A stretch of DNA of 45,114 bases, taken from assembly GCA_018819085.1 (NCBI GenBank), contig JAHJQT010000032.1:1-45114 (forward strand), read 5' to 3'. The notes beneath the pieces were generated by a model. The model saw nothing but the letters and a program-made list of their open reading frames with translations, ran no database searches and was not told the DNA's origin. This document shows, piece by piece, positions 1,084-17,233 of this stretch (its first letter is position 1; each line of letters opens with the position of its first letter). The stretch is from Patescibacteria group bacterium (GTDB lineage Bacteria; Patescibacteriota; Minisyncoccia; Portnoybacterales; UBA2143). The position numbers and the translations under genes were made by a program.

Positions 1084-3135
1084 ATGTTATCTTTATCAAC
1101 TAAAATAGAATCTCTGAATAAAGTAGGTCCTGCTTATTTGAAAAAGCTTCATAAGCTTAATATCAAAACAATACAGGACCTATTTTTTCATTTTCCTCAT
1201 CGTTATGAAGATTTTAGTAAAAGAACTTCAATAAGCGAATTAAAAGAAGGTGAAAAAGCAACTATTCAAGCTGAAATTGTTGAAATTAAAAATACACGAC
1301 TTTTCCATAGAAAAATGTCTTTAACTGAAGCATTAGTTAAAGATAATACTGGCATGATTAAAGTTACTTGGTTTAATCAGCCATATTTAATTGAAACTTT
1401 AAAAAAGGGAAAAATCGCTAATTTTTCAGGAAAATTAAGTTTTTATAAAAAAACACTTTGTCTTTCTAATCCTGTTTATGAATTAGCAAAAAAAGAAACT
1501 ACGCACACTGGGAGATTAGTTCCTATCTATCCAGAAACAGAAGGAATTAGTTCTCGTTATTTAAGATTTTTAATAAAACCACTACTATATCTAACAGAAC
1601 AACTTGATGATTTTTTACCTACTCAGGTGAAAAATAAATTCAATTTAATGGATTTAGCTCAAGCTATTGAACAAATTCATTTTCCTAAAAATTTTTTATT
1701 AGAAAAAAAGGCTCGTAAGCGTTTAGCTTTTAATGAGCTTTTTTTAATCCAATTAGCTTCCCTTCAGCAAAAGCAAAAAATATTTAAAGAAAAAGCTATT
1801 AAATTACTATTTGATAAAAAATTAATCAAACCTTTTGTTGATAACCTACCTTTTAAATTAACTGATGATCAAAAAATAGCTGCTTGGGAAATATTTCAAG
1901 ATATAGTTAAGAATAAACCTATGAATCGCCTACTTAACGGAGATGTTGGATCTGGTAAAACTATTGTCGCAATTATGGTAGCCTTAGCAGTCGCTAAACA
2001 AAAATATCAAGTAGCAATAATGACTCCAACTGAAATTCTAGCTAAACAGCATTTTCAAACATTTAAAGATATGCTTAAAAATCAAAAGATAAAGATAGCT
2101 TTGTTAACTAGCAGTTCTGTTAAAAAAGCAGAATTAAAGAAAGAAATAACTCAAGGTAAAATAGATATTATTATCGGAACGCACGCAATCATACAAAAAG
2201 ATGTTTCTTTTAAAAATCTTGCTATGGCTATTGTTGATGAACAACATAGATTTGGTGTAGCTCAAAGAGCTGCTTTACAGAAAAAAATTTGCCAAATAGA
2301 TGATGGATTAAAAACTATTCCACATTTACTTTCAATGACAGCTACTCCTATTCCACGCACTTTAGCTTTAACGATTTATGGCGATCTTGATATTTCATTA
2401 ATTAAAGAGCTACCTAAAGGCAGACAGAAAATTATAACTAAAATTGTTTCTCCGAAAAATAGGGATAAAACATATAATTTTATTAAAGAACAGATAAAAG
2501 AAAAAAGGCAAGTTTTTGTTATTTGTCCTTTAATTGAAGAATCAAATAAATTAACAGAAATTAAATCTGTAACACAAGAATACGAGAAATTATCAAAAAA
2601 TGTTTTTCCAGAATTTAAATTAGCTATGCTTCATGGCAAATTGAAACCCAAAGAAAAAGAAAAAATTATGGATGAATTTAAAAAAGCAAAAACAGATATA
2701 TTGATTTCCACTTCAGTTGTAGAAGTCGGCGTTGATATTCCTAATGCCACTGTAATGATTATAGAAGGAGCTGACAGATTTGGACTAGCGCAATTACACC
2801 AGTTTAGAGGACGAATCGGTAGAGAAAAAGTACAATCACATTGCTTCTTATTCACTGATTCCAACGCTCAAAAAACCAATATGAGATTAAAAGCAATATT
2901 AACAGCTAAAGATGGATTTGAACTGGCTGAAAAAGATTTAAAAATCAGAGGAGCTGGTGATTTTATTGGAACTAGACAATGGGGACTGCCTGATTTAGTA
3001 ATGGCCTCATTAAATGATTTAGAATTAATAAAAAAATCCCGCGAGGTAGCAGAAATGATTTTAAAAAATAATCTTATTAATCAAACTATGAAATTGAAAT
3101 TAAAAGATCTTAATAAAGATATTCATTTGGAATAA
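1084..3135 (+). CDS. recG: ATP-dependent DNA helicase RecG
   Basis: Walker A GDVGSGKT, DEQH box (VDEQHRFGV), helicase C motifs (QLHQFRGRIGR), and an N-terminal wedge region. The ATG directly abuts the CCA of the tRNA. Confidence 0.85.
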   Translation: MLSLSTKIESLNKVGPAYLKKLHKLNIKTIQDLFFHFPHRYEDFSKRTSISELKEGEKATIQAEIVEIKNTRLFHRKMSLTEALVKDNTGMIKVTWFNQPYLIETLKKGKIANFSGKLSFYKKTLCLSNPVYELAKKETTHTGRLVPIYPETEGISSRYLRFLIKPLLYLTEQLDDFLPTQVKNKFNLMDLAQAIEQIHFPKNFLLEKKARKRLAFNELFLIQLASLQQKQKIFKEKAIKLLFDKKLIKPFVDNLPFKLTDDQKIAAWEIFQDIVKNKPMNRLLNGDVGSGKTIVAIMVALAVAKQKYQVAIMTPTEILAKQHFQTFKDMLKNQKIKIALLTSSSVKKAELKKEITQGKIDIIIGTHAIIQKDVSFKNLAMAIVDEQHRFGVAQRAALQKKICQIDDGLKTIPHLLSMTATPIPRTLALTIYGDLDISLIKELPKGRQKIITKIVSPKNRDKTYNFIKEQIKEKRQVFVICPLIEESNKLTEIKSVTQEYEKLSKNVFPEFKLAMLHGKLKPKEKEKIMDEFKKAKTDILISTSVVEVGVDIPNATVMIIEGADRFGLAQLHQFRGRIGREKVQSHCFLFTDSNAQKTNMRLKAILTAKDGFELAEKDLKIRGAGDFIGTRQWGLPDLVMASLNDLELIKKSREVAEMILKNNLINQTMKLKLKDLNKDIHLE

Positions 3136-3138
3136 AAA

Positions 3139-3166
3139 TTGACAAGAAGATAATTAATGTTATAAG
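3139..3166 (+). promoter_or_regulatory. Sigma-70-like promoter: TTGACA-16-TATAAG
   Basis: Near-consensus hexamers upstream of an AAGGAG RBS and the ATG at 3232. Confidence 0.5.
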
Positions 3167-3231
3167 ATTGAGATATAAAAGACAGGGTTGTTCTTTATTA
3201 ATTTTTTCTTTATTTAGACAAGGAGACAAAT

Positions 3232-3627
3232 ATGAAATGGAAGCATAGGAAAATATCTAGATCAGAAGCAGAAAGTCTCCTGAGAGAAAGAGAGAAAGAA
3301 CTTCTCCAAGGGTTATCTCGGTCAACCAAGAATCAACTTCTGAGATTACAAGGAAGGGAGAATTCTTCTCCGCGGGAATTAGGAGTCCACAGGATATTGT
3401 CTCAATTAAATTATGAGGCATGGATTTCCCTACAGGAAGCGAAAAGAACAATTCAAAATGGGGATTGGGGAATTTGCGAATGTGGGAAGCAAATCCCCGA
3501 AGCAAGATTAAGAATCTTCCCTGAAACAGAAATCTGCACGAAGTGCAAATCACTGCACGAAAAAACGGCTCTATTCAAATTGCCTCTGTTCCGCATGGTC
3601 GCCTACTCAGGAATAGGCGCCAGGTAA
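3232..3627 (+). CDS. DksA/TraR family C4 zinc-finger protein
   Basis: CxC-N17-CxxC motif (CECGKQIPEARLRIFPETEICTKC). Strong RBS. Confidence 0.6.
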   Translation: MKWKHRKISRSEAESLLREREKELLQGLSRSTKNQLLRLQGRENSSPRELGVHRILSQLNYEAWISLQEAKRTIQNGDWGICECGKQIPEARLRIFPETEICTKCKSLHEKTALFKLPLFRMVAYSGIGAR

Positions 3628-3711
3628 TATTTTGCATGATGATCGAGCGGGCGTACGCAGCTCTCGAGACACTCGCTCATTAGGCAAGGAAGAAATCCCT
3701 GTCTTGAATTA

Positions 3712-3762
3712 GCCGGAAAGGTATCGCGGAAACAAAAGCGATACCTTCCGGCTTCTTTTTTT
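3712..3762 (+). terminator. Strong intrinsic terminator between convergent genes
   Basis: Stem gccggaaaggtatcgc / gcgataccttccggc of about 15 bp, followed by a T-run. Confidence 0.7.
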
Positions 3763-5329
3763 ATTTCTTCTTTGGAGTTACCCAAAATCCCATATATTTT
3801 CCAATCATTAAGCGTGTTTGAGCTTCTAATCCTGGAATAGCTCCAAAGATAAGAATAGTAAAAGGAACCAAAATCCATTGAATAATCATACCAAAACTTT
3901 TTAAAAATCCTTTAATTCCATCATATTTATCCGGCCGTTTAGGCAAAAGCAAAGTACTATAAATAGCTGAACCGATTAATCCAATCATAGCTATCGTCAT
4001 TAATGTCCTAGTAATCCTTGGGAGATTATATGATAAAAGAGTAATATTAAATTTATCGCCTCCTAAATATAAAGGTAGCCAGCCAAGAAGAAAAATAAGC
4101 AAAGCATTAGTTGCCCAAGACCAAAAACCCTCAAGTTGAATCCATATCCAATGGATTTTTTTTCTTAAATTAATTTTCTTATTTTTATAAAAACCAAAAA
4201 ACAAAAAAGGAATATTTTCAACTCCCCATCCCCAACGCCTTTGTTGAATATAAACATTAAGAGACGTTTTAAAAAAACTATCTGATAAATTGGCATCCAT
4301 AGAAACAGGATAATTTAATGGAATAACTTTATAATCCCCATCATAATAAAGTAAATTCTGCCAAAATATACGAGAATCTTCAGAAACCATATTAACTGGC
4401 CAAAAATCAACTTCATTTAATGCAGTAAAACTCATTGATTGAGAAGAAAAAGTAGAAAGACGTTCTGGTCTTCCTTGTTGAATCATTTGCCAAAAAGTTC
4501 CTGAAGTTGCAACTACTCTAGAAATACAAGGTGCTTGCCAAATATTATTATTATAAACAGGTATAGGTTGATAGCTCGTTCTAGTTGGATTTTTAGTAGT
4601 CAAATAATGATAAGTTAAACAAGAAAAATATTTAGGATAAACTTGAGTATCAATATCAAAACAAGAAACAATAATATTTTCATAAGGAATTTTACCCCGC
4701 TCGGCGGGGTTTACATCTATTAATTCTTTCTTTGCTTGACGAGCTGCCCAAGTTGAATTAGCTCCTTTGCCAGCTAATTCACCAACAATATCTTTTGGAT
4801 GAATTGTAATTAAAAATTTATAAAAACTATCAGAATATTCTTTTTTTATTCTTTCGGCTATTTCTTGCGCAGGTTTTCCAGCTCTTTCTTCGGTCGCTAA
4901 AATAATCATCATCTTATTATTAGGATATTCCGTATCAAGTACCGCTTGAACAGTTTTTTTAACTAATTCATAAGGCTCTTTGTAAATTGGCAGAATTATT
5001 AAATGATAATAATCTTTGTAATCTTTATCTTTAATCGCTCTTAATTTTTCCATCCAGTTAATTCTTATATTATCTTGCATTTGCTTATAACTAATCCTCA
5101 AATGAAAAGATAAATAAACTGTTTTTAAAACCCAATAAACATCAAAAGTGATGATAAAAATTGCTACAAAAGCTGGGCTAATCCAAGATAAAAAAAACAC
5201 TCCCAAAAGAGTGAACCAGGCTAATGCTCCTGGTAAAATTTCAAAAGCCCGATAAATCATTCTTTCTTTCGGACTTTTTAAATCAGTTGCTTTTCCTAAT
5301 TTTAAATAATATTTATCTTTAGAAAGCAT
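3761..5329 (-). CDS. Family-2 glycosyltransferase, processive cellulose-synthase-like membrane GT
   Basis: D-rich GT-A motifs (FDIDTQ), the QxxRW motif (QQRRWGWG), and multiple TM helices. Confidence 0.65.
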   Translation of the reverse strand: MLSKDKYYLKLGKATDLKSPKERMIYRAFEILPGALAWFTLLGVFFLSWISPAFVAIFIITFDVYWVLKTVYLSFHLRISYKQMQDNIRINWMEKLRAIKDKDYKDYYHLIILPIYKEPYELVKKTVQAVLDTEYPNNKMMIILATEERAGKPAQEIAERIKKEYSDSFYKFLITIHPKDIVGELAGKGANSTWAARQAKKELIDVNPAERGKIPYENIIVSCFDIDTQVYPKYFSCLTYHYLTTKNPTRTSYQPIPVYNNNIWQAPCISRVVATSGTFWQMIQQGRPERLSTFSSQSMSFTALNEVDFWPVNMVSEDSRIFWQNLLYYDGDYKVIPLNYPVSMDANLSDSFFKTSLNVYIQQRRWGWGVENIPFLFFGFYKNKKINLRKKIHWIWIQLEGFWSWATNALLIFLLGWLPLYLGGDKFNITLLSYNLPRITRTLMTIAMIGLIGSAIYSTLLLPKRPDKYDGIKGFLKSFGMIIQWILVPFTILIFGAIPGLEAQTRLMIGKYMGFWVTPKKK

Positions 5330-5337
5330 GCTTGTAG

Positions 5338-5412
5338 TCTATTGTATTGAGAATTTGAAAACTATAATTGAAGAAATTCAGAAATGGTGTTTAGTAATTC
5401 CTGAATTAACTA
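5338..5412 (-). repeat. Conserved leader element, family 1, copy a, immediately 5' of the GT2 gene
   Basis: About 85% identical over about 75 nt to 6636..6710. Both copies abut an ATG start. Confidence 0.7.
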
Positions 5413-5433
5413 GACTATAGTTAGTATAGCAAT

Positions 5434-6177
5434 TTAATTTAAACTTTTAAAGTCCTTATCAAGAAACTTTCCTACTACATTATTTACTTCAACAATAATA
5501 TCCTCATGACGCCTATAATCATGCTCTGAATTTAGTTCATGTATAATTTTTGGCTCTAATACTGCTCGATAAGTCGTTTTTACATCTTCTGGCTCAACTA
5601 ATATGTCCTTAGTACCATAAAAAAATAACTTTGGTTTGGAACATTCTTTTAAACCATCGAGTATATTATGTTTAGTTGCATCTTCAAAATAGTTAAGAGG
5701 TAAATCAAATCTTTTTTTATTTTCCATATCATTGGGTGGCATATCTCTATACGATATTTTTACACCATCAGTTAATTTACTCTCATCAAATTCACTTGGA
5801 CCTGCATGAGACATAACCGCTATAATATGAGTCACATATTCGTTACTGGGGCCTGCAAGCATAGCCATACTTCCACCTCTACTGTGTCCCATTAGAATTG
5901 TCGGCTTATTACCAAAAAGATCAATTAATTCATTGATTGCTTTTAGATAATTGGTCATTGTATACAAATCAATACTACCAGGACTTTCCCATGTGCCAGG
6001 AGGATCAAAAGAAAAAGCAAAATATCCTTTATTCGATAGATAATCAACGTGACTAGTCATATGAGCGTAATCTTTTGTATCTAATTGACCTGGTAATAAA
6101 ATAGCAAGCTTAGAAGAAGTCTTATCCCCACGTGAATAGACTGCTAGTTCAAAACTTTTAGTTTTCAATATTTCCAT
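5434..6177 (-). CDS. Alpha/beta-fold hydrolase
   Basis: Nucleophile elbow GHSRGG. The Asp and His are positioned downstream as expected. Confidence 0.6.
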   Translation of the reverse strand: MEILKTKSFELAVYSRGDKTSSKLAILLPGQLDTKDYAHMTSHVDYLSNKGYFAFSFDPPGTWESPGSIDLYTMTNYLKAINELIDLFGNKPTILMGHSRGGSMAMLAGPSNEYVTHIIAVMSHAGPSEFDESKLTDGVKISYRDMPPNDMENKKRFDLPLNYFEDATKHNILDGLKECSKPKLFFYGTKDILVEPEDVKTTYRAVLEPKIIHELNSEHDYRRHEDIIVEVNNVVGKFLDKDFKSLN

Positions 6178-6217
6178 ATTTTAATTTATTAAAAAATATC
6201 ATAAAGAAAAAAATTAA

Positions 6218-6628
6218 TTATAACAATTTTTCTAAATCACAAAGAATATTATCTAAGTCAGAATCTAATATTTTTGCGGTATCAATAAAATTTCCTCTTT
6301 TTTTATTCCAATGAGCTACGAAATTACATCTCTGATCAATAATATATTTAATAATCTCTTCTTTTTTAATAGACTTATAATTAGCATTATTTTTTAATTC
6401 TGTGTTTTCAAATGAAATAGCTCTTGTATCTCTATCAAAAAGATTAGCTACTCTTATAATTAAATAATCCTGTAATATTCTGTTTAGTTTTCCTAATTCG
6501 TTTTCATTGCCAGAAATCACAGGAGTGGTCCATTCCAAAACAAGTTCCGAATTTGTATTTCGTAACATCTTTAAAGCTTCCTTGCAGTTTCTTATTATAT
6601 ATAATAACTGACCAAAATATCCAGTCAT
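6218..6628 (-). CDS. Hypothetical protein, possible HEPN-domain protein
   Basis: C-terminal RCNFVAH fits the Rx4-6H HEPN motif. Co-transcribed with the hydrolase. Confidence 0.3.
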   Translation of the reverse strand: MTGYFGQLLYIIRNCKEALKMLRNTNSELVLEWTTPVISGNENELGKLNRILQDYLIIRVANLFDRDTRAISFENTELKNNANYKSIKKEEIIKYIIDQRCNFVAHWNKKRGNFIDTAKILDSDLDNILCDLEKLL

Positions 6629-6635
6629 ATCACGT

Positions 6636-6710
6636 TCTATTGTATTGAGAATTTAAAAACTATAGTCCAAGAAATCCAGAAATGGCATATAGTAATTCAT
6701 GAGATTACTA
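6636..6710 (-). repeat. Conserved leader element, family 1, copy b, 5' of the HEPN-like gene
   Basis: Aligns with 5338..5412. Confidence 0.7.
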
Positions 6711-6727
6711 CATACAGGAATTGAACG

Positions 6728-7258
6728 TTAATCTTTGTCTTTAGGAATTAATGAAGCCACAGGCCCTACACACAAAAATGAATCGTTCATTTTGTCGCCA
6801 AATTCGAAATCCTTAGATAACACTTTTTTACAGGCCTCAACAAAGTCAAAATAAAAATATTCTATAACAAACACTTTTAACTCTTTTCCATCTGTTTTTA
6901 CATAATCTGGATGTTTCTTATATGGATGTACTCCATAAGGATCATTCTTGTTTTGAGTCACAATTATAGTCCCTGGACCAGACATATGAACCATACCACA
7001 TCTTAAATTAGAATACATCTGCTTTCTCAAATCGTGATAGCGCTCTGGGAACAATTCAATAATAGCATTTTCAAAATGTTTTTTACTAAGTCCAGGCTTT
7101 CTCCATTCACACTTAGAATCTATACATTTCCCTAAAAACTCGATTCCACTACAAACCAATAGAAAAGACATGTAAGGATCAATAAGAATAATTTCTCCTA
7201 ACTTTTCGATAAAGTGCTCTTTGATGAAGTCCTTAGGGTAGATATCCCTTTGTAACAT
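6728..7258 (-). CDS. Hypothetical protein (176 aa)
   Basis: ORF with an ATG. Downstream of the 64-aa gene in the same operon. Confidence 0.4.
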   Translation of the reverse strand: MLQRDIYPKDFIKEHFIEKLGEIILIDPYMSFLLVCSGIEFLGKCIDSKCEWRKPGLSKKHFENAIIELFPERYHDLRKQMYSNLRCGMVHMSGPGTIIVTQNKNDPYGVHPYKKHPDYVKTDGKELKVFVIEYFYFDFVEACKKVLSKDFEFGDKMNDSFLCVGPVASLIPKDKD

Positions 7259-7310
7259 AATATTCTCTTCTTAATTATCCCTACTGCCATTGCAGTTTTA
7301 CAGGAAGCCA

Positions 7311-7505
7311 TTATTTTTTCTTTTTTTTATCAATCTCCTTGGCTTTATTAACTAGATAAGAAGCCACATCCCATGGTTTTTTCTTTGCGACCTTATAATT
7401 ATCTATATTTTTATGGCGGATAAAGAAAATAAGATCGTTAGTTTTTTCTCTTTTTCTATTCCAACCAACAATAAATCCTTCTGATTCTTTAATTTTTTTA
7501 GGCAT
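7311..7505 (-). CDS. Small basic hypothetical protein (64 aa)
   Basis: ORF with a lysine-rich C-terminus. Preceded by the family-2 leader. Confidence 0.35.
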   Translation of the reverse strand: MPKKIKESEGFIVGWNRKREKTNDLIFFIRHKNIDNYKVAKKKPWDVASYLVNKAKEIDKKKKK

Positions 7506-7523
7506 AGATTAATATTTGATCAT

Positions 7524-7582
7524 TTTTATATCCCAAACCTCTCTTTAGAATCAATTCATCTTTAAATTAAATTTAACAAAAA
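7524..7582 (-). repeat. Conserved leader element, family 2, copy a
   Basis: About 85% identical to 8299..8357 (tttttatatYccaaaYctc...agaatcaattca.ctttaRa.taaatttaacaa). Confidence 0.65.
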
Positions 7583-7657
7583 AAAATATAACCAAAAACA
7601 AACTGAAAAACTACTGGCAGGACTCTTAATTTAAGAGTATCTCTTTATGAAAAATAA

Positions 7658-8287
7658 TTACTTCACGATGATTTTTTTTGTCTCTACGCCAAAAATTTCT
7701 CTTAGATGACCATCAACAAGCGTATCGTAAGTATCACATTCTTTAACTAGCTCTTTATTAACTATGTTTGATTCAGATAAACTTAATAAACTGACGTTAC
7801 TACCAAAATCCCTTAAACGTTTACACAGAGGAATAAAATCAGAGTCATTAGTTAACAAAAATAACCTCTCTAATTTACCAGTTGCCGATAACTGCAATGC
7901 GTCACAACATAACTCAGTATCAACCCCTTTTTCACTTTTGCTACACCTATCACGATACTTACTAGGTACAGTCTTCAAAAATTCATCATAACCCTTTGAC
8001 CCCCGTAATTTTCCGCCACAATACTTAAAATAAACATCTCTTATTAATCCTGGTTCTTTAAAATCTGGCAATGACAGATACTCTTCAATACGTGGATCAC
8101 CTTTAGCAAAATAATAAACAGCTCTCTTATACTGTCCGTTATGCAAATCTCTTAAATTAAGTATAAAATGATGGATCAATTTCAAAGGATCTAATTTATG
8201 TTCTTTGAAATTTTCTCTCTTCTTCTGAAGAACATAAATTTGAGAGATTAAAGCAGAACCATCTATAAAAAAATAATTACTAATCAT
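7658..8287 (-). CDS. NYN-domain (LabA/PIN-like) putative ribonuclease
   Basis: Motifs FIDGSAL, KGVDTELCCD and LLTNDSDFIPL. Confidence 0.65.
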   Translation of the reverse strand: MISNYFFIDGSALISQIYVLQKKRENFKEHKLDPLKLIHHFILNLRDLHNGQYKRAVYYFAKGDPRIEEYLSLPDFKEPGLIRDVYFKYCGGKLRGSKGYDEFLKTVPSKYRDRCSKSEKGVDTELCCDALQLSATGKLERLFLLTNDSDFIPLCKRLRDFGSNVSLLSLSESNIVNKELVKECDTYDTLVDGHLREIFGVETKKIIVK

Positions 8288-8298
8288 AATTTAAATTC

Positions 8299-8357
8299 TT
8301 TTTATATTCCAAATCTCAGTCCAGAATCAATTCAGCTTTAGAATAAATTTAACAATA
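8299..8357 (-). repeat. Conserved leader element, family 2, copy b
   Basis: Aligns with 7524..7582. Contains TTGATT-18-TATAAA; the TATAAA ends about 12 nt upstream of the ATG. Confidence 0.65.
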
Positions 8358-8371
8358 CCCTAGATAAAACA

Positions 8372-9316
8372 TCAACTCTTTACTTTTCTAAGATACTTAC
8401 CAAAAACCTTATGAAAATTTTCTGCTGTTACTTGCAACCAAGCAAAATATTCGTCCCATTTATCAGTATCATTGATACTACCCTCTCTTGATAATTTAAT
8501 GCGACTGGCTTTTTTATTTTCCAATGGCATCCATTCTATTTTTTTTGTTCCTAACTCACTCTCTATTTGTTTTTTCTGTATTTCAAGTCCTCTGAAAATT
8601 TCTTTTTTTCTTGGAATATATATTTCACATGACATAACACCACCAAGACTATTAACAGTTAATGCTATATGATAATCAGAACTACCAAGACTAATATCGT
8701 GCCAATGTCGAGGTCTGGGACTCCTTAATTTTAAATTAGTCCCATTTTGTTTTGCAAATTCATTAAATTTATCCCAAAAATTAAGTTGTTCAACTTTAGT
8801 GTCAGTTAAATTTGATTTTCCTGAAGATTGTTTTATTGCTTTCGCCCAATCATTTGGTTTGGCAATAATTTGAAATTTAGGTGCAAAAGGTGAATCAGCT
8901 ATTTGCCATAATTCCATCTTAATAGCAAAAAAGTTTATTTCTTCATCCGTATGTTCATTAAGCCAGTTAATAGCTTGTTTGTGTTCATCTCTTACATCTT
9001 TAACTATCCAAATAATTATTTCTGCATCATATCCTGAAGCATAAGTTATTATCTTACCAAGATGATCGTGATCAGTCGCTTCTAATTGATTCTCAATGAT
9101 AATCTTTCTACCAGTATTTTCTTCTTCTGCTAATATATCAACACTAAATTTACCAACACTAGCTTCGGTTTGTATTAAAGTTAAATCAATGCCTATTTCA
9201 TCACTCAATAAAGATAAGTTTTCATCTTCAGATAACCAATTAGTAAAATCAGTAGCTTCGTGATTCCACGCTTTTCGTAAATCGATTTGTTTTATTTTAG
9301 ATAAATTTTGTGACAT
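8372..9316 (-). CDS. DUF4268-family protein, possible PD-(D/E)xK nuclease fold
   Basis: N-terminus WNHEATDFTNWL...VGKFSVDILAEE...IIENQLEATDHDHLGKIITYA is typical of DUF4268. Confidence 0.55.
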   Translation of the reverse strand: MSQNLSKIKQIDLRKAWNHEATDFTNWLSEDENLSLLSDEIGIDLTLIQTEASVGKFSVDILAEEENTGRKIIIENQLEATDHDHLGKIITYASGYDAEIIIWIVKDVRDEHKQAINWLNEHTDEEINFFAIKMELWQIADSPFAPKFQIIAKPNDWAKAIKQSSGKSNLTDTKVEQLNFWDKFNEFAKQNGTNLKLRSPRPRHWHDISLGSSDYHIALTVNSLGGVMSCEIYIPRKKEIFRGLEIQKKQIESELGTKKIEWMPLENKKASRIKLSREGSINDTDKWDEYFAWLQVTAENFHKVFGKYLRKVKS

Positions 9317-9491
9317 ATGATTTATGATAAACCTAATATTTTTCAGCTTTCTCTGTCTATTTAATTTTAAGACTATTAATAATCGGCGTCAAATTTTCTT
9401 CAATTATTTCTTGTAATTTTTAATCCATTTTTTTGTTCTAATAAGTTTTTATTTGAAAATAGATATAACTAAAGTGATAAACAAAATCAAC

Positions 9492-12383
9492 CTATGCTAA
9501 AATATCTAAATTCCTTAAGTTACTTTCAATAAGAGTAATCTCTTCTTGCATTTTATTATCTTTTTTATAATCTTTTTGAATTTTCTTATATGCATACATT
9601 ATTGTTGTATGATCGCGCTTAAAAATATTACCAATAACAGGAAAAGAACTTTTAAGATGTTTTCTAATTAGATACATTGAAATTTGCCGCGGATATGCAA
9701 ATTCTTTTTTTCTAGAAATACTTTTAATTTCATTTTCCTTAATACTGTAAAAATCTGCGACTCCCTCTATAATCTTATCAGTAGATACATCAAGAGATTT
9801 TTCAAAACGATCGATATAATCTATAATTTTTATATTTCTTTTGCCTTTTTTACCTTCAAATATAGATGATTCTTCTTTAGGAATATCGTTAATAGTAATT
9901 ATTTCATCATCTCCGTATAACTTCGGCAAAGCGCTATTTATTATTTGTCGGACTCTTTCTCGACTTATTTTATATTTAAGAGATATTTCTTCTAATGTAT
10001 GTTTTCGATTTTCGTTTATGCCAAACTTCATTTCAACTATTTCTTTAAGCCTACCCCCAAGCACATCTATACGAGATACTAAAACATTTGCGTCATTTGT
10101 TTCTATATTACGATTAATAATATTTATATAGTCTTGGTGTAATGGTTTGTCTACGAACATTTCATATATAATTGCTCCAATTTCTAATTTTTTCATTATT
10201 ATATGCCCTGAAATATCAGTATGCGCATCATCAGTTTTTTGTCCAAGATTACCATTATTATATGCCTCTGCTACTGAAAGATTAAGAAATTCATCTAAAA
10301 TCAATTCTGCAAGATATAACTGCATAATAATTGATTTTTCTACATCAGACATTTTTGGATCTTCTCCAAAATAAATTTTGTTAATTGGATTTTTTCTATT
10401 TATAATTATAAATCCTGCCTCTTCTCCGAATTGCGCTCGAGCTTTTTGAATTTGCTCTGGCATATCTCTGAATTTCCAACCACGAAAAATTCCGGCGTCT
10501 TTGCCTTGCGGTGGTATCCTATTTTTATCATGGACATAAATTTTCGCATTACATTGATAATTATTCGATATCGCGATGACATTACCATTTTCATTACTTT
10601 TTTGACCTATAAAACCAATTGGTATCATTGCATTATTAGATTTACTGATTTTTTCTTTAGGAACTTTTACTTTTTTATCTAATAATATAATCGATGAGTT
10701 ATCAGATTCTAAATTAATAACTTCAGCAGTTTTTACTTTTTCTAAATCAACAAACAAATATAGTTTACTTTTCCTATTAGTTACTACAGAAAGTTCATTT
10801 GGATAAAATTCTATACCATTTTGAGGATAGAACAAATCACTTTGTATCACAGATACGAAACAAACAGCTTGAGATTCTTCACAAGTAGCAGTTATCTTAC
10901 CAACTGCATTCAAGGTGTTGGATTTAATTTTTATATGTTTTGAAATTATGCCATCCCTATTCGCATCCTCTTTTTTAAGAATAATTGTATCCGGTGTAAC
11001 TGAAATTTGTTTTTCATTACAAAGTAGAAACACTTTTGCATTTTGAGAAAAATCATCGATATTTATTTTAAGCTGTAAATAATATTGTTTATCAACTGTT
11101 ATTTTTATATTTTCTCTAGCAAACATTAACTCATTAATTTTTCTTGAATCTGGATTATCAAATGTTCCACCACTTTTTTCGCCAACAAGATCGGAATATA
11201 TCTTATTTAATTTTTTAAATACTTCTGAATGTCGTTTTTTTGTTTCTTCTGATAAATCACTTGCATCTTCTTCAGAATTTTTAAATTCATCAAATATTGG
11301 ATACAATAAATCTTTAACTTTATTAGAAAAATATTTATAAAACAGTTGAGATTTATCAAAACCATTTCTAGTATCAGTTAATATTTCTTCAGGAATCTCC
11401 TCATTAAGTTTTTCGTCAATAATTTCACGTGCATTAGTTAATTTTATATAACCAAAAATATTATTAGCCCCTAAATTTTTTTCAAATCCAAAAAAATCTA
11501 AATCATATACTGAATTATCATAATTAGCATCGTAAACCAATATTTTATTTGCATTCTCGCCAATTTTTTGTACCAAATCAAACTTAGCTTTATATAAACA
11601 AATATCTATTTCAACTGGCTTGAATTCTTCATACGGTTTAAAATATAACTTTTTGTCTAAAATCTTAGAAACATCGTTTGAATATAATTTTTCTACAAAT
11701 TTATATTCTATTTTTTTAGACACAGGATTTTTTTTGTTTTCAGTTTCAATTAATGTAATATTTCTATCAGGATTACTGTTAATAAATCGAAGCATGTATG
11801 AATCCGAAAGTCCTCTAAAAAGATTTTGAAACTCTGGCAAGTTAATTTTTTTAAAAGAAGGAAGCTCGAATTCTATAACTGTCCCATTTTTTTTAATATT
11901 ATACTTTTGTCTATATTTTTTTAATTCCTTTTTACTTAATCTATTGTGAGAATAAATTTGATCATCTTCTTTATAATAAAACGAGCAAATATATAATTCA
12001 TCGTCTTTTATTGAATAAAGATTACTTGTTGAAGATGGATTTAAAAACAAAACATCAGTCAATCCCTGACCATAGAGACCTCTTCCATCATGTCCTTTCT
12101 TCGATCCACTTTTAATTGCGCCGTATTTCCCAAAATTTTCTTCTATATCTTTTTGATTCATACCTTCCGCATAATCGATAACTCGAATAACTCTAGTTCT
12201 TCTATCTATATATATTTCAATACTCTTAATATAATCTATATTTATACCTTTCTTTTCTAATCGATTATAACTTTCATCAGAATTAGTTATAAGTTCAGTA
12301 AAGATTTTGTATATATCTCGTAGCGCTTTACCATGTCTTCTACTGGCAAATCTTTTTGAATTTTTTATTATGTGTTCTGGCAT
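9492..12383 (-). CDS. Large multidomain protein: N-terminal GHKL (Bergerat-fold) ATPase, then sigma-70 region 4-like HTH, then a C-terminal DnaA domain IV-like DNA-binding domain
   Basis: GHKL motifs: N-box ELITNSDESY, G1 VIDYAEGM, G2 GRGLYGQGL. FGINENRKHTLEEISLKYKISRERVRQIINSALPKL resembles sigma-70 regions 4.1/4.2. PRQISMYLIRKHL...IGNIFKRDHTTIMYAYKKI resembles DnaA domain IV. Confidence 0.6.
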   Translation of the reverse strand: MPEHIIKNSKRFASRRHGKALRDIYKIFTELITNSDESYNRLEKKGINIDYIKSIEIYIDRRTRVIRVIDYAEGMNQKDIEENFGKYGAIKSGSKKGHDGRGLYGQGLTDVLFLNPSSTSNLYSIKDDELYICSFYYKEDDQIYSHNRLSKKELKKYRQKYNIKKNGTVIEFELPSFKKINLPEFQNLFRGLSDSYMLRFINSNPDRNITLIETENKKNPVSKKIEYKFVEKLYSNDVSKILDKKLYFKPYEEFKPVEIDICLYKAKFDLVQKIGENANKILVYDANYDNSVYDLDFFGFEKNLGANNIFGYIKLTNAREIIDEKLNEEIPEEILTDTRNGFDKSQLFYKYFSNKVKDLLYPIFDEFKNSEEDASDLSEETKKRHSEVFKKLNKIYSDLVGEKSGGTFDNPDSRKINELMFARENIKITVDKQYYLQLKINIDDFSQNAKVFLLCNEKQISVTPDTIILKKEDANRDGIISKHIKIKSNTLNAVGKITATCEESQAVCFVSVIQSDLFYPQNGIEFYPNELSVVTNRKSKLYLFVDLEKVKTAEVINLESDNSSIILLDKKVKVPKEKISKSNNAMIPIGFIGQKSNENGNVIAISNNYQCNAKIYVHDKNRIPPQGKDAGIFRGWKFRDMPEQIQKARAQFGEEAGFIIINRKNPINKIYFGEDPKMSDVEKSIIMQLYLAELILDEFLNLSVAEAYNNGNLGQKTDDAHTDISGHIIMKKLEIGAIIYEMFVDKPLHQDYINIINRNIETNDANVLVSRIDVLGGRLKEIVEMKFGINENRKHTLEEISLKYKISRERVRQIINSALPKLYGDDEIITINDIPKEESSIFEGKKGKRNIKIIDYIDRFEKSLDVSTDKIIEGVADFYSIKENEIKSISRKKEFAYPRQISMYLIRKHLKSSFPVIGNIFKRDHTTIMYAYKKIQKDYKKDNKMQEEITLIESNLRNLDILA

Positions 12384-12387
12384 AATT

Positions 12388-13023
12388 TTAAAACTTTAAT
12401 AATTCAATAATATAATTCATAAAAGACAAAGCTTCTGTATTTTTTGTATTTTTACAAATATCTTTTAATTTTAAAATGCGTTTCTTAATTACTTCCTTTC
12501 TTGTAAAGGACATAACTCCTAAAAAAGAGAATATTTCAAACTCATTTATGCTTTCTTTATTTTCTTGCCATTTCTTAAATAAATTCGAATTTATTATTTC
12601 GTCTACATCGCCCTCAATTGATTTTATTCTTTTAGATTCGTTCTTTTTAGCTAAAACTTTTTTTTGTAGATTTGGGTTATTCAACATTTTTTTTGTCTCT
12701 TTCGCTACTTCTTTTCCTAATGTTGTAATTGAAAAATTAGTTCTAATATTTCCAACAGCCCAATTTCTATCAGTTGGTCTTAAATGCAATCTTAGTAAAT
12801 TAGAGATTCTATATAAATCAGGATATTCTTTGAATGTAATTAATGAAAACCTCTTAGGAAAAAATTTAAACATCGCTATGCCAATATATTCAAAATACAA
12901 TGGTATTCTTTTTTCTTCTAAAAAATACATAGTAAAAATCGCCAATTTATCTTGCGTAATATTTTCATATTGGTTTTCTTGAAAAGGATTAAGTTCTTTT
13001 ACAAATTTTTTATAAGCATCCAT
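12388..13023 (-). CDS. Hypothetical protein (211 aa), operon partner of the GHKL fusion
   Basis: ATG ORF with a 4-nt gap to the downstream gene. Confidence 0.4.
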   Translation of the reverse strand: MDAYKKFVKELNPFQENQYENITQDKLAIFTMYFLEEKRIPLYFEYIGIAMFKFFPKRFSLITFKEYPDLYRISNLLRLHLRPTDRNWAVGNIRTNFSITTLGKEVAKETKKMLNNPNLQKKVLAKKNESKRIKSIEGDVDEIINSNLFKKWQENKESINEFEIFSFLGVMSFTRKEVIKKRILKLKDICKNTKNTEALSFMNYIIELLKF

Positions 13024-13024
13024 A

Positions 13025-13252
13025 TTATAATTTAAATTCCTTATTTTTAGGAAAATGAAACTTTGATTTAGTTTCTTTTACTTTACGCTCAATTTCTGAA
13101 AAAATTTTATTTATCTCTTCTTCTTTATAACTATAAGCACTTCTATTAGAGCAATTACCAAGAACTTTAATTCTTTTCAGAACTTCATTTGTCCGATAAG
13201 TTGCTAATTTTTTGAATCTTTCTCTTTTAATCTCTTGATTTTGTTTGGTCAT
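13025..13252 (-). CDS. Small hypothetical protein. The ORF could extend to 13303 (92 aa); the MTKQNQ start is preferred on promoter spacing.
   Basis: 1-nt gap to the next gene. TTGTAT-17-TTATAT lies upstream. Confidence 0.3.
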   Translation of the reverse strand: MTKQNQEIKRERFKKLATYRTNEVLKRIKVLGNCSNRSAYSYKEEEINKIFSEIERKVKETKSKFHFPKNKEFKL

Positions 13253-13584
13253 ATTTTTAATATGTATATAATAAATACTATCACTATAATACAAGGATAT
13301 CATATCCTTATATTATTTGTCAATACCTTAGCTGTAGATAAAAAATATAAATAAATTTCATATAAAAAATACAATTGATCCTATCTTTCACCTAGACATG
13401 ATGCACTTAGTCTATACTTGTCCGTATTAAGACGTTAATATATAGAGTAATAGAAACTATTAGAAATTGATTATTACATCGTACACGCACATTTAGAACG
13501 TTCTATATGAGGAGGGGGTGTCTTCTAGATTTCCATGGCAGTAACGTACAGACGTAAGTTATTAATAAATGTTATACTGAATCT

Positions 13585-14346
13585 ATGGATAAAAATGAAA
13601 TAATCAAACAAATTCAAGATTTAAAGGCCATTACAGATGATTTAGAATCTGTGATAGTTAAGCTTATAAAAATTGATTCGGATAAGATAATTGATAGACA
13701 TTCTAATCACATTAAAAATCTAGAAGTTAAAAAACTCAAACAGGAACAATATCAAATTAAAAGAGGATATAGAATATTAATAAAAAAAATTAAAATACAA
13801 TTTGAGTTTTTACTTAAAAAATTAGATATTCGTAAGAAAATTAAAATTATCCCAGAATGGGCATTAGATGCAGACAACATTTTCGTGATTTGTTATACAC
13901 AAACTAACGAGCATGGCGATATGAATTATGATCTATCAGAATTATTCGATGTTCCTAAAAAGATAAAATCATATTTAATACAGCTTAATAAATATACAAA
14001 TAAAAAATTTAAAGAAAATAAAAAATATCCCCAGAAAGTTCCAAAAAATACTACTCCTTTAATTTTGTTTGATTCAAAAACTGGCATAGGTAGTGTTAAT
14101 GGATCTAAATTTGAGTTTCGTATCGGAAACAAGCCATACATATTTTTTAAAGAACTTTATAAAAATATAAACAAACCAATCCAAAGAAAGAAAGCACTAG
14201 AGTTAATAAATTTAATTGATTTAAGTGGAACAGAACAAGCAAAGCGATTGAATCGTTTTATTACAAGATTAAGACGAGAACTTGGACTAAATGCGAATCA
14301 TTTAATATTAAAACACAGTATAACCTTAAAAGGCGTAAAAAAGTGA
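13585..14346 (+). CDS. Hypothetical protein (253 aa), first gene of the integrative-element-like module
   Basis: ATG ORF with a strong terminator downstream. Confidence 0.4.
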   Translation: MDKNEIIKQIQDLKAITDDLESVIVKLIKIDSDKIIDRHSNHIKNLEVKKLKQEQYQIKRGYRILIKKIKIQFEFLLKKLDIRKKIKIIPEWALDADNIFVICYTQTNEHGDMNYDLSELFDVPKKIKSYLIQLNKYTNKKFKENKKYPQKVPKNTTPLILFDSKTGIGSVNGSKFEFRIGNKPYIFFKELYKNINKPIQRKKALELINLIDLSGTEQAKRLNRFITRLRRELGLNANHLILKHSITLKGVKK

Positions 14347-14397
14347 TATCAACAGTTGACCTATAGTTAGTCTAATTTATCAGAAGTTAAAATCATG

Positions 14398-14426
14398 ACA
14401 AGCTTAATACATAAGCTTGTTTTTTA
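14398..14426 (+). terminator. Intrinsic terminator
   Basis: Stem acaagctt / aagcttgt with a 7-nt loop, followed by TTTTTT. Confidence 0.65.
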
Positions 14427-14523
14427 ATTTTCTAATAAAAATATGACTATAACCAATCAACCGAGAGGGCCGCCACAATAGAATGGTTGTTCCTTAATTA
14501 ATAATTAAAATTAATAAAAAAAT

Positions 14524-14844
14524 ATGATAACAAAAGAACAATATAAAGAAATCTACGATAAATTTATTACCAGCTCACAAACCAAAGAAGACGTCTATAT
14601 GTTAATGCTTGGAATTGGCATCAACTGGAACAAAGTCAGAAAAATTATGAATCATCTTTATCCTTGGTTCTGGGATGATAATTGTATAGCTATTATAAAA
14701 ACACTTTTCAGAGATGACATAATAATCAAAGAACAATATATATTAGGAATTATTCGAAATTGGCTTTATCAAGCATGGCGAAATGATAAATATGAATTCA
14801 AAAATAAATGGTCTGAATCATCAATTAAAGAATTATTTTTATAA
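14524..14844 (+). CDS. Hypothetical protein (106 aa)
   Basis: ATG ORF. Confidence 0.35.
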   Translation: MITKEQYKEIYDKFITSSQTKEDVYMLMLGIGINWNKVRKIMNHLYPWFWDDNCIAIIKTLFRDDIIIKEQYILGIIRNWLYQAWRNDKYEFKNKWSESSIKELFL

Positions 14845-14849
14845 AAAAC

Positions 14850-15455
14850 ATGAGTGAAAAGCAAGGATGGATAAAATTATATAGAAAACTACTACATGAT
14901 CCAATTTTTACAAGCGACAAAGGACTAAAAATTTGGATCTGGTGTTTATTAAGAGCAAATCACAAAAATACTGAGATATTTTTAGGAAGACAAAGAATAA
15001 TACTTAAACAAGGACAATTTGTATTTGGACGTTACACAGCGAGTGAGGAGTTAAAAATATCACCATCAACAACTTGGTTCTGGATAAAAAAATTAAAGAA
15101 CGACGATTATATTGACATCAAACCAACTAATAAATTCAGTATTGTAACAATCAAAAAATGGAAAGAGTATCAAACATTATTAACAACAAATGAAAAACAA
15201 GTGAACACAGACAATAATGATAATAATGTAAATAATATTGATGAAGCTGCGCTTCAAGAAATTAATTATATGAAGAAGCAGCTTCTCAATATTGGAGTAA
15301 GACCTAAACTCGTAAATGAAATGAATAAACAAAAAGAGTTTTGGAGAGCAAAGAAAAACATTATTCGTAAATGTTTAATAAATAAAGAAATCGAAGATAA
15401 AGCAGCTTATATTGCTAAGATCTATTATTTCTGGAAAGAGAATGAAGCTAAATGA
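14850..15455 (+). CDS. Possible replication-initiator or replisome-organizer-like winged-helix protein
   Basis: N-terminal GWIKLYRKLLHDPIF...IWIWCLLRANH pattern resembles what I recall of plasmid/phage replication-initiator N-terminal regions. The C-terminus is basic. Confidence 0.3.
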   Translation: MSEKQGWIKLYRKLLHDPIFTSDKGLKIWIWCLLRANHKNTEIFLGRQRIILKQGQFVFGRYTASEELKISPSTTWFWIKKLKNDDYIDIKPTNKFSIVTIKKWKEYQTLLTTNEKQVNTDNNDNNVNNIDEAALQEINYMKKQLLNIGVRPKLVNEMNKQKEFWRAKKNIIRKCLINKEIEDKAAYIAKIYYFWKENEAK

Positions 15456-15664
15456 CAGGGGTTATAAACATTTGCATACTATCATACAATGCTCATGTCC
15501 TGCCTCTGAAAATTAAAAAAATGATTACAGTTGCAGAATTTAAAAAACTACATAATACAAAAACATTAGAATTAACTGATGAAGAAATAGAAGCAGTGAT
15601 TAATTTACTGTATCAATTAAGCGATCTATTATTTGAAATTTGGATCGAAGAAAAAAATAAATGA
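15452..15664 (+). CDS. Small hypothetical protein. An internal start MITVAEF at about 15521 is possible.
   Basis: Overlaps the neighbouring genes by 4 nt, so it may be translationally coupled. Confidence 0.3.
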   Translation: MTGVINICILSYNAHVLPLKIKKMITVAEFKKLHNTKTLELTDEEIEAVINLLYQLSDLLFEIWIEEKNK

Positions 15665-17199
15665 AATTAAACAGCGAATTACAAACAGGAATTATTTATT
15701 ATCGAGTTAGCACCGAAGATCAAGCTGAACATGGTGCTAGTTTAATGTACCAAAAAAGAAACTGTTCTGAATTTGCTGAAAAAAATAATATTAATGTCTT
15801 AAGACTATTTCATGACGATGGCGTCTCAGCAAAAACAACGAATAGAGCTGATTTGCAAGACATGCTCAAATACTGCAACAAAAACCATAAAAAGATTGAC
15901 TGCCTAATAGTCTATAAAATTGATCGACTCTCTAGAAATGTTAATGACTATACAAATATTCTGATCTTTTTAAATAAATTACAAATAAAACTAGTTTCTA
16001 CCACAGAATCAATAGATGATACGCCCACAGGTAAATTTATCGGCAACGTAATGGCTGCCTCTGCTCAATTTGATAATGACTTGAGAAGCGAGAGAGTTTC
16101 TTCTTGCATGATGGAGAGAGTAAGACAAGGACAATGGTGTTGGAAAGCTCCTCTTGGCTATTTAAATAGAGCAAACGAATATAGCCAAAAAATAGTTGTT
16201 CTAGATAAAGAAAAAAGCCGTTTCGTTAAACTAGCTTTTGAAAAATTCGCTACCGAACTTTATATTTTAGAAGACATTAGAAAATTAATTAATAAGAGAG
16301 GACTTAAAAACAATAGCGATAATGAAATTTCCTCTCAATTAATGCATAAAATTATAACTAATCCATTTTACTGTGGTGTGCTAAAAGTCAAAGGAGATTT
16401 ATACAAAGGAAAACATGAAAAAATAATTAGTGAAGAAACTTTTGATAAGTGCCAATCATTATTAAAAAGAAGCAATAGAGGAGAAAATATCTCAAGAAGA
16501 AGAACTAATGTTGATTTTCCTCTAAGAAATTTTGCAATCTGCTCTGTTTGTGAGCGTCCATTGACTGCTGCTTTCTCAACAGGTCATCGAGGTGGTAAAT
16601 ATCCATATTATCGTTGCTATAATAAATATTGTTCAGCTAAAAAATCTATTAATCAACAAAGTGTTGAAAATGACTTTTTAGAACTTTTAAAACAAATCAC
16701 TCCCAAGAGAGAATATTTAGATATATTTAAACCAATTGTAATTGATGTTTGGAACAAAAATTATAATGATCTTAATAAACGACGAAATGATATAATGAAA
16801 AAAATTGAGAAATTAAATAAAGAAAAAGAAAAATTAATTGATATGAAAAAGAAAGAATTGTTACCTGATGAAGATTTTAAAGAAGCATTCGAAGAAATAA
16901 AAGAGAAAATACGAAAAGAGATAATCTTAAGCGAAACCAGAATTGAACAATTCAATCCAACTGAAGCGATTAACTATGTATTCAACTTTATTACAAATAT
17001 ACCTGAGTTTTGGAAGAAAGCTGATTGCCAACAAAAAATTCGTTTACAGAGTTTAATTTTCACTGAAAAGCCCATTTATACCTATCCAAAGTTTGGAACC
17101 CCCAAAATTTGTTTAATCTTACAGCAAAAAACGCCTATCGCGAACGATAGGCATCTCATGGTAGCCCTACGGGGAGTCGAACCCCGGTTGCCAGATTGA
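15661..17199 (+). CDS. Large serine recombinase (integrase)
   Basis: Resolvase N-terminal domain with the catalytic Ser in YYRVSTEDQ, a recombinase domain, a zinc ribbon (CSVCERP...YYRC) and a coiled coil. The 3' end reads into tRNA-Glu. Confidence 0.8.
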   Translation: MKLNSELQTGIIYYRVSTEDQAEHGASLMYQKRNCSEFAEKNNINVLRLFHDDGVSAKTTNRADLQDMLKYCNKNHKKIDCLIVYKIDRLSRNVNDYTNILIFLNKLQIKLVSTTESIDDTPTGKFIGNVMAASAQFDNDLRSERVSSCMMERVRQGQWCWKAPLGYLNRANEYSQKIVVLDKEKSRFVKLAFEKFATELYILEDIRKLINKRGLKNNSDNEISSQLMHKIITNPFYCGVLKVKGDLYKGKHEKIISEETFDKCQSLLKRSNRGENISRRRTNVDFPLRNFAICSVCERPLTAAFSTGHRGGKYPYYRCYNKYCSAKKSINQQSVENDFLELLKQITPKREYLDIFKPIVIDVWNKNYNDLNKRRNDIMKKIEKLNKEKEKLIDMKKKELLPDEDFKEAFEEIKEKIRKEIILSETRIEQFNPTEAINYVFNFITNIPEFWKKADCQQKIRLQSLIFTEKPIYTYPKFGTPKICLILQQKTPIANDRHLMVALRGVEPRLPD

Positions 17200-17233
17200 A
17201 AATCTGACGTCCTAACCATTAGACGATAGGGCC
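17159..17233 (-). tRNA. tRNA-Glu, anticodon UUC, encoded CCA
   Basis: Manual fold: acceptor ggcccta/tagggct, anticodon stem tcaga/tctgg, loop ttTTCaa, T-loop ttcgact. Confidence 0.7.

Follow-up and report, generated by a model that had tools for sequence, protein, structure and literature searches.

A probable integrated element of a Patescibacteria-wide large serine recombinase family at the 3′ boundary of a tRNA-Glu gene

The contig JAHJQT010000032.1 of a Patescibacteria group bacterium (assembly GCA_018819085.1), whose whole analysed stretch of 45,114 nucleotides (nt) is called the window here and which has a low G+C content of about 30%, carries a gene for a large serine recombinase (LSR) whose open reading frame (ORF) ends inside a tRNA-Glu(UUC) gene on the opposite strand (Table 1). 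The overlap spans 41 nt including the stop codon (17159–17199). The LSR tail MVALRGVEPRLPD is antisense tRNA sequence, as is the end of the ORF written as ...HLMVALRGVEPRLPD before the stop, and the TGA stop is itself the complement of anticodon bases 35–36 plus A37. An earlier note, made by reading this DNA without database searches, had described a 512-residue serine recombinase with a YYRVSTEDQ motif and a zinc ribbon whose last 13 codons are translated tRNA, and both parts of that description are borne out. The protein matches Pfam Resolvase (PF00239, E-value 4.8e-34, residues 11–159), Recombinase (PF07508, 3e-16) and then Zn_ribbon_recom (PF13408, 6.6e-8), as well as PHROG 95 ‘integrase' (1.5e-90). 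In an alignment of 21 homologues, Y13-Y14-R15-V16-S17-T18 of the motif and the zinc-ribbon cysteines C294, C297, C319 and C324 are invariant. The AlphaFold model of P0025, a homologue 54% identical to the window LSR, shows coiled-coil helices at residues 347–394 and 400–423 with predicted local distance difference test (pLDDT) values of 80–92. All sequence features tested place the enzyme in the large serine recombinase family, and the broken pseudogene, which the earlier note had named as a contrary outcome, is not what is found, the ORF being intact and all catalytic and zinc residues present. In the public record of the contig the recombinase is given as a 282-residue fragment (MBU1177150.1), and the gene is absent from the NCBI and JGI gene calls on identical contigs (loci L005, L006 and L007). 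It has probably been dropped or cut in annotation owing to the tRNA overlap, and the family is likely to be under-annotated.

Overlap between LSR and tRNA is a trait of the family and not a coincidence. The comparison covers 77 related loci, made up of the window, 5 genomes and 71 metagenome contigs; a scan of a genome collection with the full-length LSR alignment responded to generic motifs, returned mostly unrelated recombinases and was useful only for L008–L012. The nearest homologues (45–67% identical, about 507–515 residues, all from Patescibacteria) nearly all end in ...[LMI]V[AP][PL]RG[IVF]EP...., which is the translated reverse complement of a tRNA acceptor and T arm. Such a tRNA-antisense C terminus (...RGIEPLLPG) is found in 103 of 114 full-length homologues, a different conserved tail in 4 and an odd or cut end in 7. 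The LSR stops 39 or 41 nt inside an opposite-strand tRNA-Glu, in the same frame, at 47 of the 77 loci; at the remaining ones it ends in tRNA-Ala(UGC) (63–69 nt or read-through), tRNA-Arg(UCU) (39 nt) or tRNA-Leu. The overlap lengths of 39 or 41 nt and of 63–69 nt differ because the stop codon depends on the anticodon, NUC (Glu) giving TGA, UCU (Arg) giving TAG and UGC (Ala) giving no stop, so that the ORF reads on. A recombinase ORF that merely runs to its first stop, which happens to fall in a neighbouring tRNA, could also leave tRNA-derived residues outside the folded domains, where they lie, and the equivalent region of P0025 is modelled at low confidence. However, the same frame and overlap at 47 loci, the tRNA-antisense end of 103 homologues from many Patescibacteria lineages and a synteny break in relatives exactly at the tRNA end (described below) have already refuted this account, to which we attach practically no probability.

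The few deviating C termini reveal where the attachment site of the element lies. In P0025, P0028, P0063 and P0092 the common ...SS.V leads into a tail, for example DYCIENLHPLVLDIKKWAIGIKVLTQTSF, that follows the conserved pattern ...V(D/V)YCIENL..I.EI.KW.... Two contigs encoding tailed, free-form enzymes are circular: L098, of 11,164 nt, whose ends overlap by 130 nt, and L172, of 10,823 nt, which encodes P0025 and has 30 nt repeated exactly at its two ends. L098 is 89.7% identical in nucleotide sequence over 3.5 kb to L090, which is integrated at tRNA-Glu, and the gene order of one is a circular permutation of the other. The two are collinear up to ...CTCTTTGGTAG and split exactly after ...TTTGGTAG, past which L098 continues into ACCACTGTATTCAGAAT... 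(tail) and L090 into CCCCAACGGGATTCGAACC... (tRNA). The attP site therefore lies within the last ~30 integrase codons, and tRNA DNA replaces tail DNA on integration. This location of attP within the integrase ORF is direct in L098 and L172, and is deduced for the window from its orphan tails.

Orphan tail fragments lie on the same strand as the LSR, 3–10 kb upstream of it, in about two dozen integrated loci. Fourteen of them show a mean non-synonymous divergence (dN) of 0.16 and a mean synonymous divergence (dS) of 0.81 (ratio 0.2), which would fit a sequence that is translated during part of the element's life, though it is also a DNA site; in the AlphaFold model of P0025 the tail forms only a low-confidence helix. 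At L143, two elements stand in tandem: the first LSR runs into the tail of the second, which yields the ‘free-form' P0092, and the second LSR ends in tRNA-Arg. When 14 loci are aligned, attL, attR and attP have in common only GT(A/G)G plus 0–4 further bases. This core corresponds to tRNA positions 71–74 on the tRNA strand; crossover therefore takes place at the extreme 3′ edge and leaves the mature tRNA body untouched, and the tRNA-derived LSR codons are therefore chromosomal DNA, not element DNA. A crossover in the anticodon loop or T loop, considered on the basis of L123, L131, L126 and 17-nt repeats, was rejected, the LSR junctions sharing only GT(A/G)G. The L131 repeat belongs to a tyrosine-integrase element and the 17-nt repeats to a separate ‘X' unit, both described below.

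Two orphan tails are also present in the window. They are the two best tblastn hits in it for every free-form tail tried (those of the attP-form LSRs P0025, P0028, P0063 and L098), with E-values from 1e-6 to 4e-4 (3e-6 to 4e-4 for the outer copy) and the next hit above 0.02. The two copies (repeat D1) are 84% identical (dN 0.14, dS 0.47) and both are open reading frames. The outer fragment is, judging from these matches, the 3′ end of the integrase gene as read in the excised form, and it follows a GTAG core like that of attR. The common part of the window attL and attR is only GTAG(Y)C. From these junctions, attP of the window element is predicted to read ...CGATAGGCATCTCATG-GTAG-TCTATTGTATTGAG... 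(also written CGATAGGCATCTCATG, GTAG, TCTATTGTATTGAGAATTTG) and attB ...AGAAAGCATGCTT-GTAG-CCCTACGGGGAG... (also written TTTAGAAAGCATGCTT, GTAG, CCCTACGGGGAGTCGAACC). The island would thus extend over 5334–17164, about 11.8 kb, or 10.5 kb with the inner tail as functional left end; the inner tail is either such an alternative left end or a relic of an earlier insertion. Assembly L002 breaks at this second copy.

These boundaries agree with most of what the earlier note had anticipated for the left side. It had reported no long direct repeat of the tRNA 3′ end there, and none of 11 nt or more is found in the window, the best match being 10 nt (E-value 1.7). The short crossover core that it expected is GTAG(Y)C, and the short match to the junction that it proposed to look for is the GTAG at the outer tail. 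Its extension of the module over the leftward genes to about 12 kb is upheld by the left junction at 5334 and by several cargo genes with homologues inside other LSR elements. The left boundary, which it had called undefined, can now be recognised by the 3′ part of the integrase gene that has been displaced to it. The repeats that it took for a ‘cassette array' are these orphan integrase tails.

Membership of the leftward genes bears on a second interpretation, in which the LSR element comprises only the rightward operon (~13.3–17.2 kb), the segment from 5.4 to 13.3 kb is an older, unrelated island and the tails stem from vanished insertions. The presence of two tail copies, the tandem or relic arrangements that are common in the family (L143, L153, L120) and the divergent intergenic region at 13304–13584 are what such a composite would predict. 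We consider it quite unlikely, given that neither a tail fragment nor a junction resembling the core is located around 13.3 kb and that typical elements of the family measure 5–10 kb. Furthermore, homologues of three cargo proteins are found inside other LSR elements, the 176-residue protein in L151, the DUF4268 protein in L094 and the 92-residue protein in L130, where the gene is at the equivalent position and its product 67% identical; all three elements have the same layout of a leftward and a rightward operon as the window. The leftward genes therefore probably belong to the element.

Comparison with relatives of the same genus (L159, L162 and L166; TsaD 75–79% identical) defines the insertion from outside. 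Common flanks, 84–87% identical in nucleotide sequence, consist of RecG, (DksA) and a 517-residue gene on the left and of tRNA-Glu, TsaD, ValS and onward on the right. The alignment stops at window positions 5329–5411 and restarts at 17157–17161, the 3′ end of tRNA-Glu. Between the flanks, the three relatives hold about 4 kb of unrelated genes with no LSR, compared with 11.8 kb in the window, and the left flank, which in the window is the start of a 522-residue gene, is conserved in all of them. At L166 5612–5650 the start of the 517-residue gene is joined directly to a tRNA-Glu 3′ fragment, and this sequence matches the attB rebuilt from the left arm of the window attL and the right arm of attR. 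The L166 scar consists of a 27-nt tRNA-Glu 3′ fragment broken in the T loop and is closer to the window tRNA than to that of L166 itself. L159 has an orthologous attL at 5880–5957, where the integrase tail contains an in-frame stop. The integrated element that the earlier note had suspected at the tRNA thus finds support in the synteny break exactly at the tRNA-Glu 3′ end, in relatives that lack the LSR and in homologous circles that carry attP; an identical gene order without any indel, which it had named as the contrary outcome, is not what the relatives show, with about 4 kb of other cargo and no LSR in each. We conclude that 5334–17164 very probably represents an integrated element of ~11.8 kb that belongs to a Patescibacteria-wide LSR family targeting the 3′ boundary of tRNAs, mostly tRNA-Glu.

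Insertion at this edge separates the tRNA from whatever lay downstream, and the DNA that replaces it contains a candidate terminator. A hairpin, predicted to fold at −18.7 kcal/mol (z −5.2), followed by a T-run on the tRNA strand, is located just past the tRNA 3′ end inside integrase codons (Table 1); it was missed by a simple terminator scanner and picked up by folding. All of 10 other loci have a covarying hairpin of different sequence at the same position, then a U-run, and the displaced B arms at attL are themselves a hairpin with a T-run. The semi-conserved LSR stretch ...K(K/R)ELA.A.S... may accordingly be read as largely the translation of the antisense terminator. The window tRNA-Glu has an encoded CCA, which comes from the P arm; the relatives have no encoded CCA. 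Despite the 84–87% identity of the flanks, many paired positions of the tRNA-Glu differ in both halves between the window and L159, L162 and L166, with compensating changes.

A mechanism can be proposed for the window from these elements. The excised element would be a circle with attP in the last ~30 integrase codons and an enzyme with the conserved tail, a state shown for homologues and extrapolated to the window. Recombination with attB at the GT(A/G)G core, tRNA 71–74, would insert the element downstream of the tRNA, separating it from the neighbour that it used to have there (in the window, the start of the 522-residue gene), and leave the tail-coding fragment at the far end as attL. The integrase ORF would then read antisense tRNA to the TGA, its last ~27 residues exchanged for 13, and the hairpin and T-run in the integrase 3′ coding region would take over as tRNA terminator. 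Replication of the circle would rely on the DnaD-like protein. The leftward genes are cargo, with a candidate defence gene among them, and excision, perhaps aided by the 70-residue ORF product, would rebuild the full-length integrase gene. More speculatively, the tail exchange might act as a built-in state sensor: the tailed enzyme of the free circle would be tuned for integration, and the tail-less integrated form would differ in activity, stability or partner binding, thereby biasing the direction of recombination, while the element would pay for its site with a new tRNA-Glu terminator and an encoded CCA. We put this proposal forward tentatively and regard it as rather improbable as it stands.

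Several points weigh against the interpretation of the island as an integrated element of this kind. Neither a circle nor an empty site was found for this particular element, the island being present in 7 of 7 public contigs of the strain (99.9–100% identical); no attP-form variant occurs in the protein cluster of the window LSR, and IMG/VR has no match to its predicted attP junction. The true left end is ambiguous owing to the second tail copy at 6635, a dyad-symmetry scan of five attP sites gave no clear centre and did not fix the exact crossover dinucleotide, and the attL shared with L159 indicates that the insertion, or at least that junction, may be old. Moreover, the roles of three components are putative: that of the hairpin as replacement intrinsic terminator of tRNA-Glu, deduced from its structure, that of the 70-residue ORF as candidate accessory or directionality factor, deduced from its position, and that of the tail swap.

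Some of these points lend themselves to a different history, in which an old integration by the same mechanism has become fixed and the integrase has been kept by chance or for another role, for example shuffling segments between the two tail sites. Such a fossil island would explain that every contig of the strain carries it, that the outer attL has a decayed orthologue in L159, that relatives which have lost the LSR retain tail relics and that no excised form is seen in IMG/VR or in the protein cluster. An LSR ORF that is intact in all catalytic and zinc residues is less easily reconciled with it, as are the two orphan tails, both still open with dN below dS, and a cargo wholly unlike that of the relatives, which implies turnover since the species split. 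We regard this history as possible, although on balance we doubt it.

The genes between attL and the integrase lie in a leftward and a rightward group (Table 1). The leftward genes include the candidate defence gene for the DUF4268 protein and that for a large three-part fusion protein, which forms an operon with the 211- and 92-residue ORFs and whose sole PADLOC match is in the helix-turn-helix (HTH) part (MzaA, 1.5e-7). A pair of repeats (7523–7579 and 8299–8355, 84% identical) flanks the NYN gene; on the minus strand each copy is found shortly before a gene start, which suggests duplication of a promoter or 5′ leader and not a site of recombination. The rightward operon begins with ORFs of 253 and 106 residues, neither of which matches Pfam, PHROG or PADLOC, and the former was rejected as the replication protein (Rep) of the family (hhalign probability 0.5%). 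For the gene that follows them, upstream of the integrase, the earlier note had suggested a replication initiator. It was right as to replication, the match being to PHROG families of DnaD-like helicase loaders, and less so as to initiation, a loader or organiser being indicated rather than a proven initiator. The DnaD-like ORF has no sequence relative in the Protein Data Bank; its product presumably provides the replication function of the excised circle. Immediately ahead of the LSR, the window and no fewer than 10 further loci have an ORF of 58–70 residues; homologues of the 70-residue ORF occupy this place in 9 other loci and in L172.

Table 1. Positions of genes, attachment sites and signals of the candidate element and its target in the window.
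Feature	Position	Strand	Remarks
attL (outer)	5334..5420	+	core GTAG 5334-5337, then orphan coding fragment VVYCIENLKTIIEEIQKWCLVIPELTRL with stop, P′ arm; tblastn
Alpha/beta hydrolase	5434..6177	-	Pfam Abhydrolase_1 2.3e-11; between the two tails
136-residue ORF	6218..6628	-	between the two tails
Second orphan integrase tail	6635..6724	+	FYCIENLKTIVQEIQKWHIVIHEITTYRN with stop; repeat D1, tblastn; without GTAG core
176-residue ORF, 64-residue ORF	within 6728..9316	-	cargo
NYN-domain protein	7658..8287	-	Pfam NYN
DUF4268 protein	8372..9316	-	Pfam DUF4268; PADLOC candidate PDC-S11 4e-124
963-residue fusion of GHKL ATPase, sigma-70 region 4 and DnaA C-terminal HTH, then 211-residue and 92-residue ORFs	9492..13303	-	Pfam
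Two ORFs, 253 and 106 residues	13585..14844	+	head of rightward integrase operon
DnaD-like helicase loader or replisome organiser	14850..15455	+	PHROG 2514 3e-26, 7498 1e-18, 186 2e-13
70-residue ORF	15452..15664	+	directly upstream of integrase; homologues immediately upstream of LSR elsewhere
LSR, integrated form, 512 residues	15661..17199	+	last 13 codons and stop are antisense tRNA-Glu
Candidate terminator	17124..17156	-	hairpin 17133-17152 then U6, 7 nt past tRNA 3′ end; inside integrase codons KTPIANDRH
attR core GTAG	17161..17164		complement of tRNA positions 74-71; element (P arm) left, chromosomal tRNA (B′ arm) right
tRNA-Glu(UUC), target gene	17159..17233	-	intact after insertion; ARAGORN
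Promoter-like site	17272-17244	-	TTTACA-17-TATAAT

Across the family, the gene upstream of the LSR in 33 related loci encodes an HUH rolling-circle Rep (PF23343, 2.3e-13) in which the HYH and YxxKY motifs are invariant, and type III restriction-modification genes are among the cargo of other elements. IMG/VR contains no relative of the family-specific C-terminal region of the LSR. In some elements (L090 7403–8527, L098 1842–2969, L102, L104 and L109) a tyrosine recombinase (PF00589, 3.4e-12) is encoded two genes upstream of the LSR and may resolve multimers of the circle. A different arrangement is seen in L131, where an 8.6-kb tyrosine-integrase (PF00589) element at 1621–10381 occupies the same tRNA-Glu and is flanked by a 47-nt tRNA repeat; it encodes the tyrosine integrase, an HTH_17 protein, a small terminase subunit, an AAA_25 protein and a subtilase and AAA pair, and has displaced an LSR together with its tRNA 3′ half from the tRNA. 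The tRNA-Glu site is thus contested by recombinases of two classes.

Related loci, though not the window, also contain a conserved, GC-rich ‘X' unit of ~200 nt, single or in tandem beside tRNAs. It starts with a perfect 17-nt copy of the neighbouring tRNA 3′ end, broken in the T loop, ends with a hairpin and T-run, and matched no Rfam family. Copies are located at L120 1980–2222; L153 94–320, 2484–2732 and 12373–12790 (minus strand); L140 2368–2598; L126 4630–4858 and 10364–10592; L150 1–182; and L130 4–186, and in L126 an ‘X' unit interrupts the LSR tail. The unit may be a miniature integrative element or an RNA gene; in the former case, the copies at the same tRNAs may be miniature non-autonomous elements for which the T loop provides a second crossover. 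Near the opposite end of the target, repeats of the 5′ part of tRNA-Glu (17–35 nt) sit 20–360 nt past the tRNA 5′ end in six related loci (L097 935–956, L122 2730–2751, L138 2686–2707, L142 1680–1696, L104 10978–11012 and L157 10690–10708) and hint at further insertions or relics there.

The element resembles several known systems in part. LSRs such as phiC31, Bxb1, TP901-1, A118, SPbeta SprA, CcrAB and TnpX consist of three domains and a coiled coil, share a very short core between their sites, have attP beside the integrase gene and need no long homology. The domain architecture, the short core, the independence of long homology and the position of attP by the integrase gene are alike in the window element and its family. 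However, the target here is a tRNA 3′ boundary and not a protein-coding gene, attP falls within the integrase ORF so that the C terminus differs between the free and integrated states, and the P arm doubles as a putative antisense terminator. A large survey of LSRs (Durrant et al., PMC10083194) never mentions tRNA. Archaeal elements of the SSV1 type likewise have attP in the integrase gene and a tRNA as target (PMC8371274). The likeness extends to the breaking of the gene by integration and is one of analogy, not membership: theirs are tyrosine recombinases whose gene is divided into two large pieces, and a long stretch of the tRNA is duplicated, whereas the serine recombinase described here exchanges no more than its last ~27 codons for 13 from the tRNA, and only 4–8 bp are common to its sites. 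Mycobacteriophages such as BPs and Brujita use integration-dependent immunity, in which attP lies in coding sequence and a change of C terminus can switch between free and integrated states; it is the repressor that is remodelled, and the integrase is of the tyrosine type. The location of attP within coding sequence, and with it a C terminus altered by integration, is common to both, but here the integrase itself is remodelled and any switch function is putative.

Tycheposons of Prochlorococcus employ tyrosine recombinases and have partial copies of the tRNA on their flanks (bioRxiv 10.1101/2020.12.28.424599). They too are small cargo elements with a recombinase and a replication gene that use a specific tRNA, pile up in tandem, leave relics and form a hypervariable island with the newest end at the tRNA, whereas here only a short core is shared and what remains on the left derives from an integrase tail and not from a tRNA. 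Actinomycete elements of the pSAM2 type are integrative rolling-circle plasmids that enter a tRNA 3′ end by means of a tyrosine integrase and duplicate a tRNA segment. A small replicating circle and integration at a tRNA 3′ end are shared with them, and most members of the LSR family have an HUH Rep; the window element differs in having a DnaD-like protein and no HUH Rep. With a serine enzyme and no tRNA repeat of 15–60 nt, the window falls outside the tyrosine-integrase type to which P4-like elements, tycheposons and pSAM2 belong and of which the L131 element is a genuine example. In the searchable library of literature, which is incomplete, no prior description was found of this arrangement or of a serine-integrase gene that spans its own attP.

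Patescibacteria have tiny genomes and, to our knowledge, few described mobile elements. The present analysis defines a widespread family of integrative, plasmid-like elements of 5–12 kb in these bacteria, together with rules for finding both of their ends, and accounts for the hypervariable island with candidate defence genes by tRNA-Glu. It also adds serine integrases aimed at the 3′ edge of a tRNA, a highly conserved and universal site that may interest genome engineers. Finally, it adds a serine-recombinase case of an integrase gene that spans attP, with the consequence that the free and integrated states encode different enzymes.

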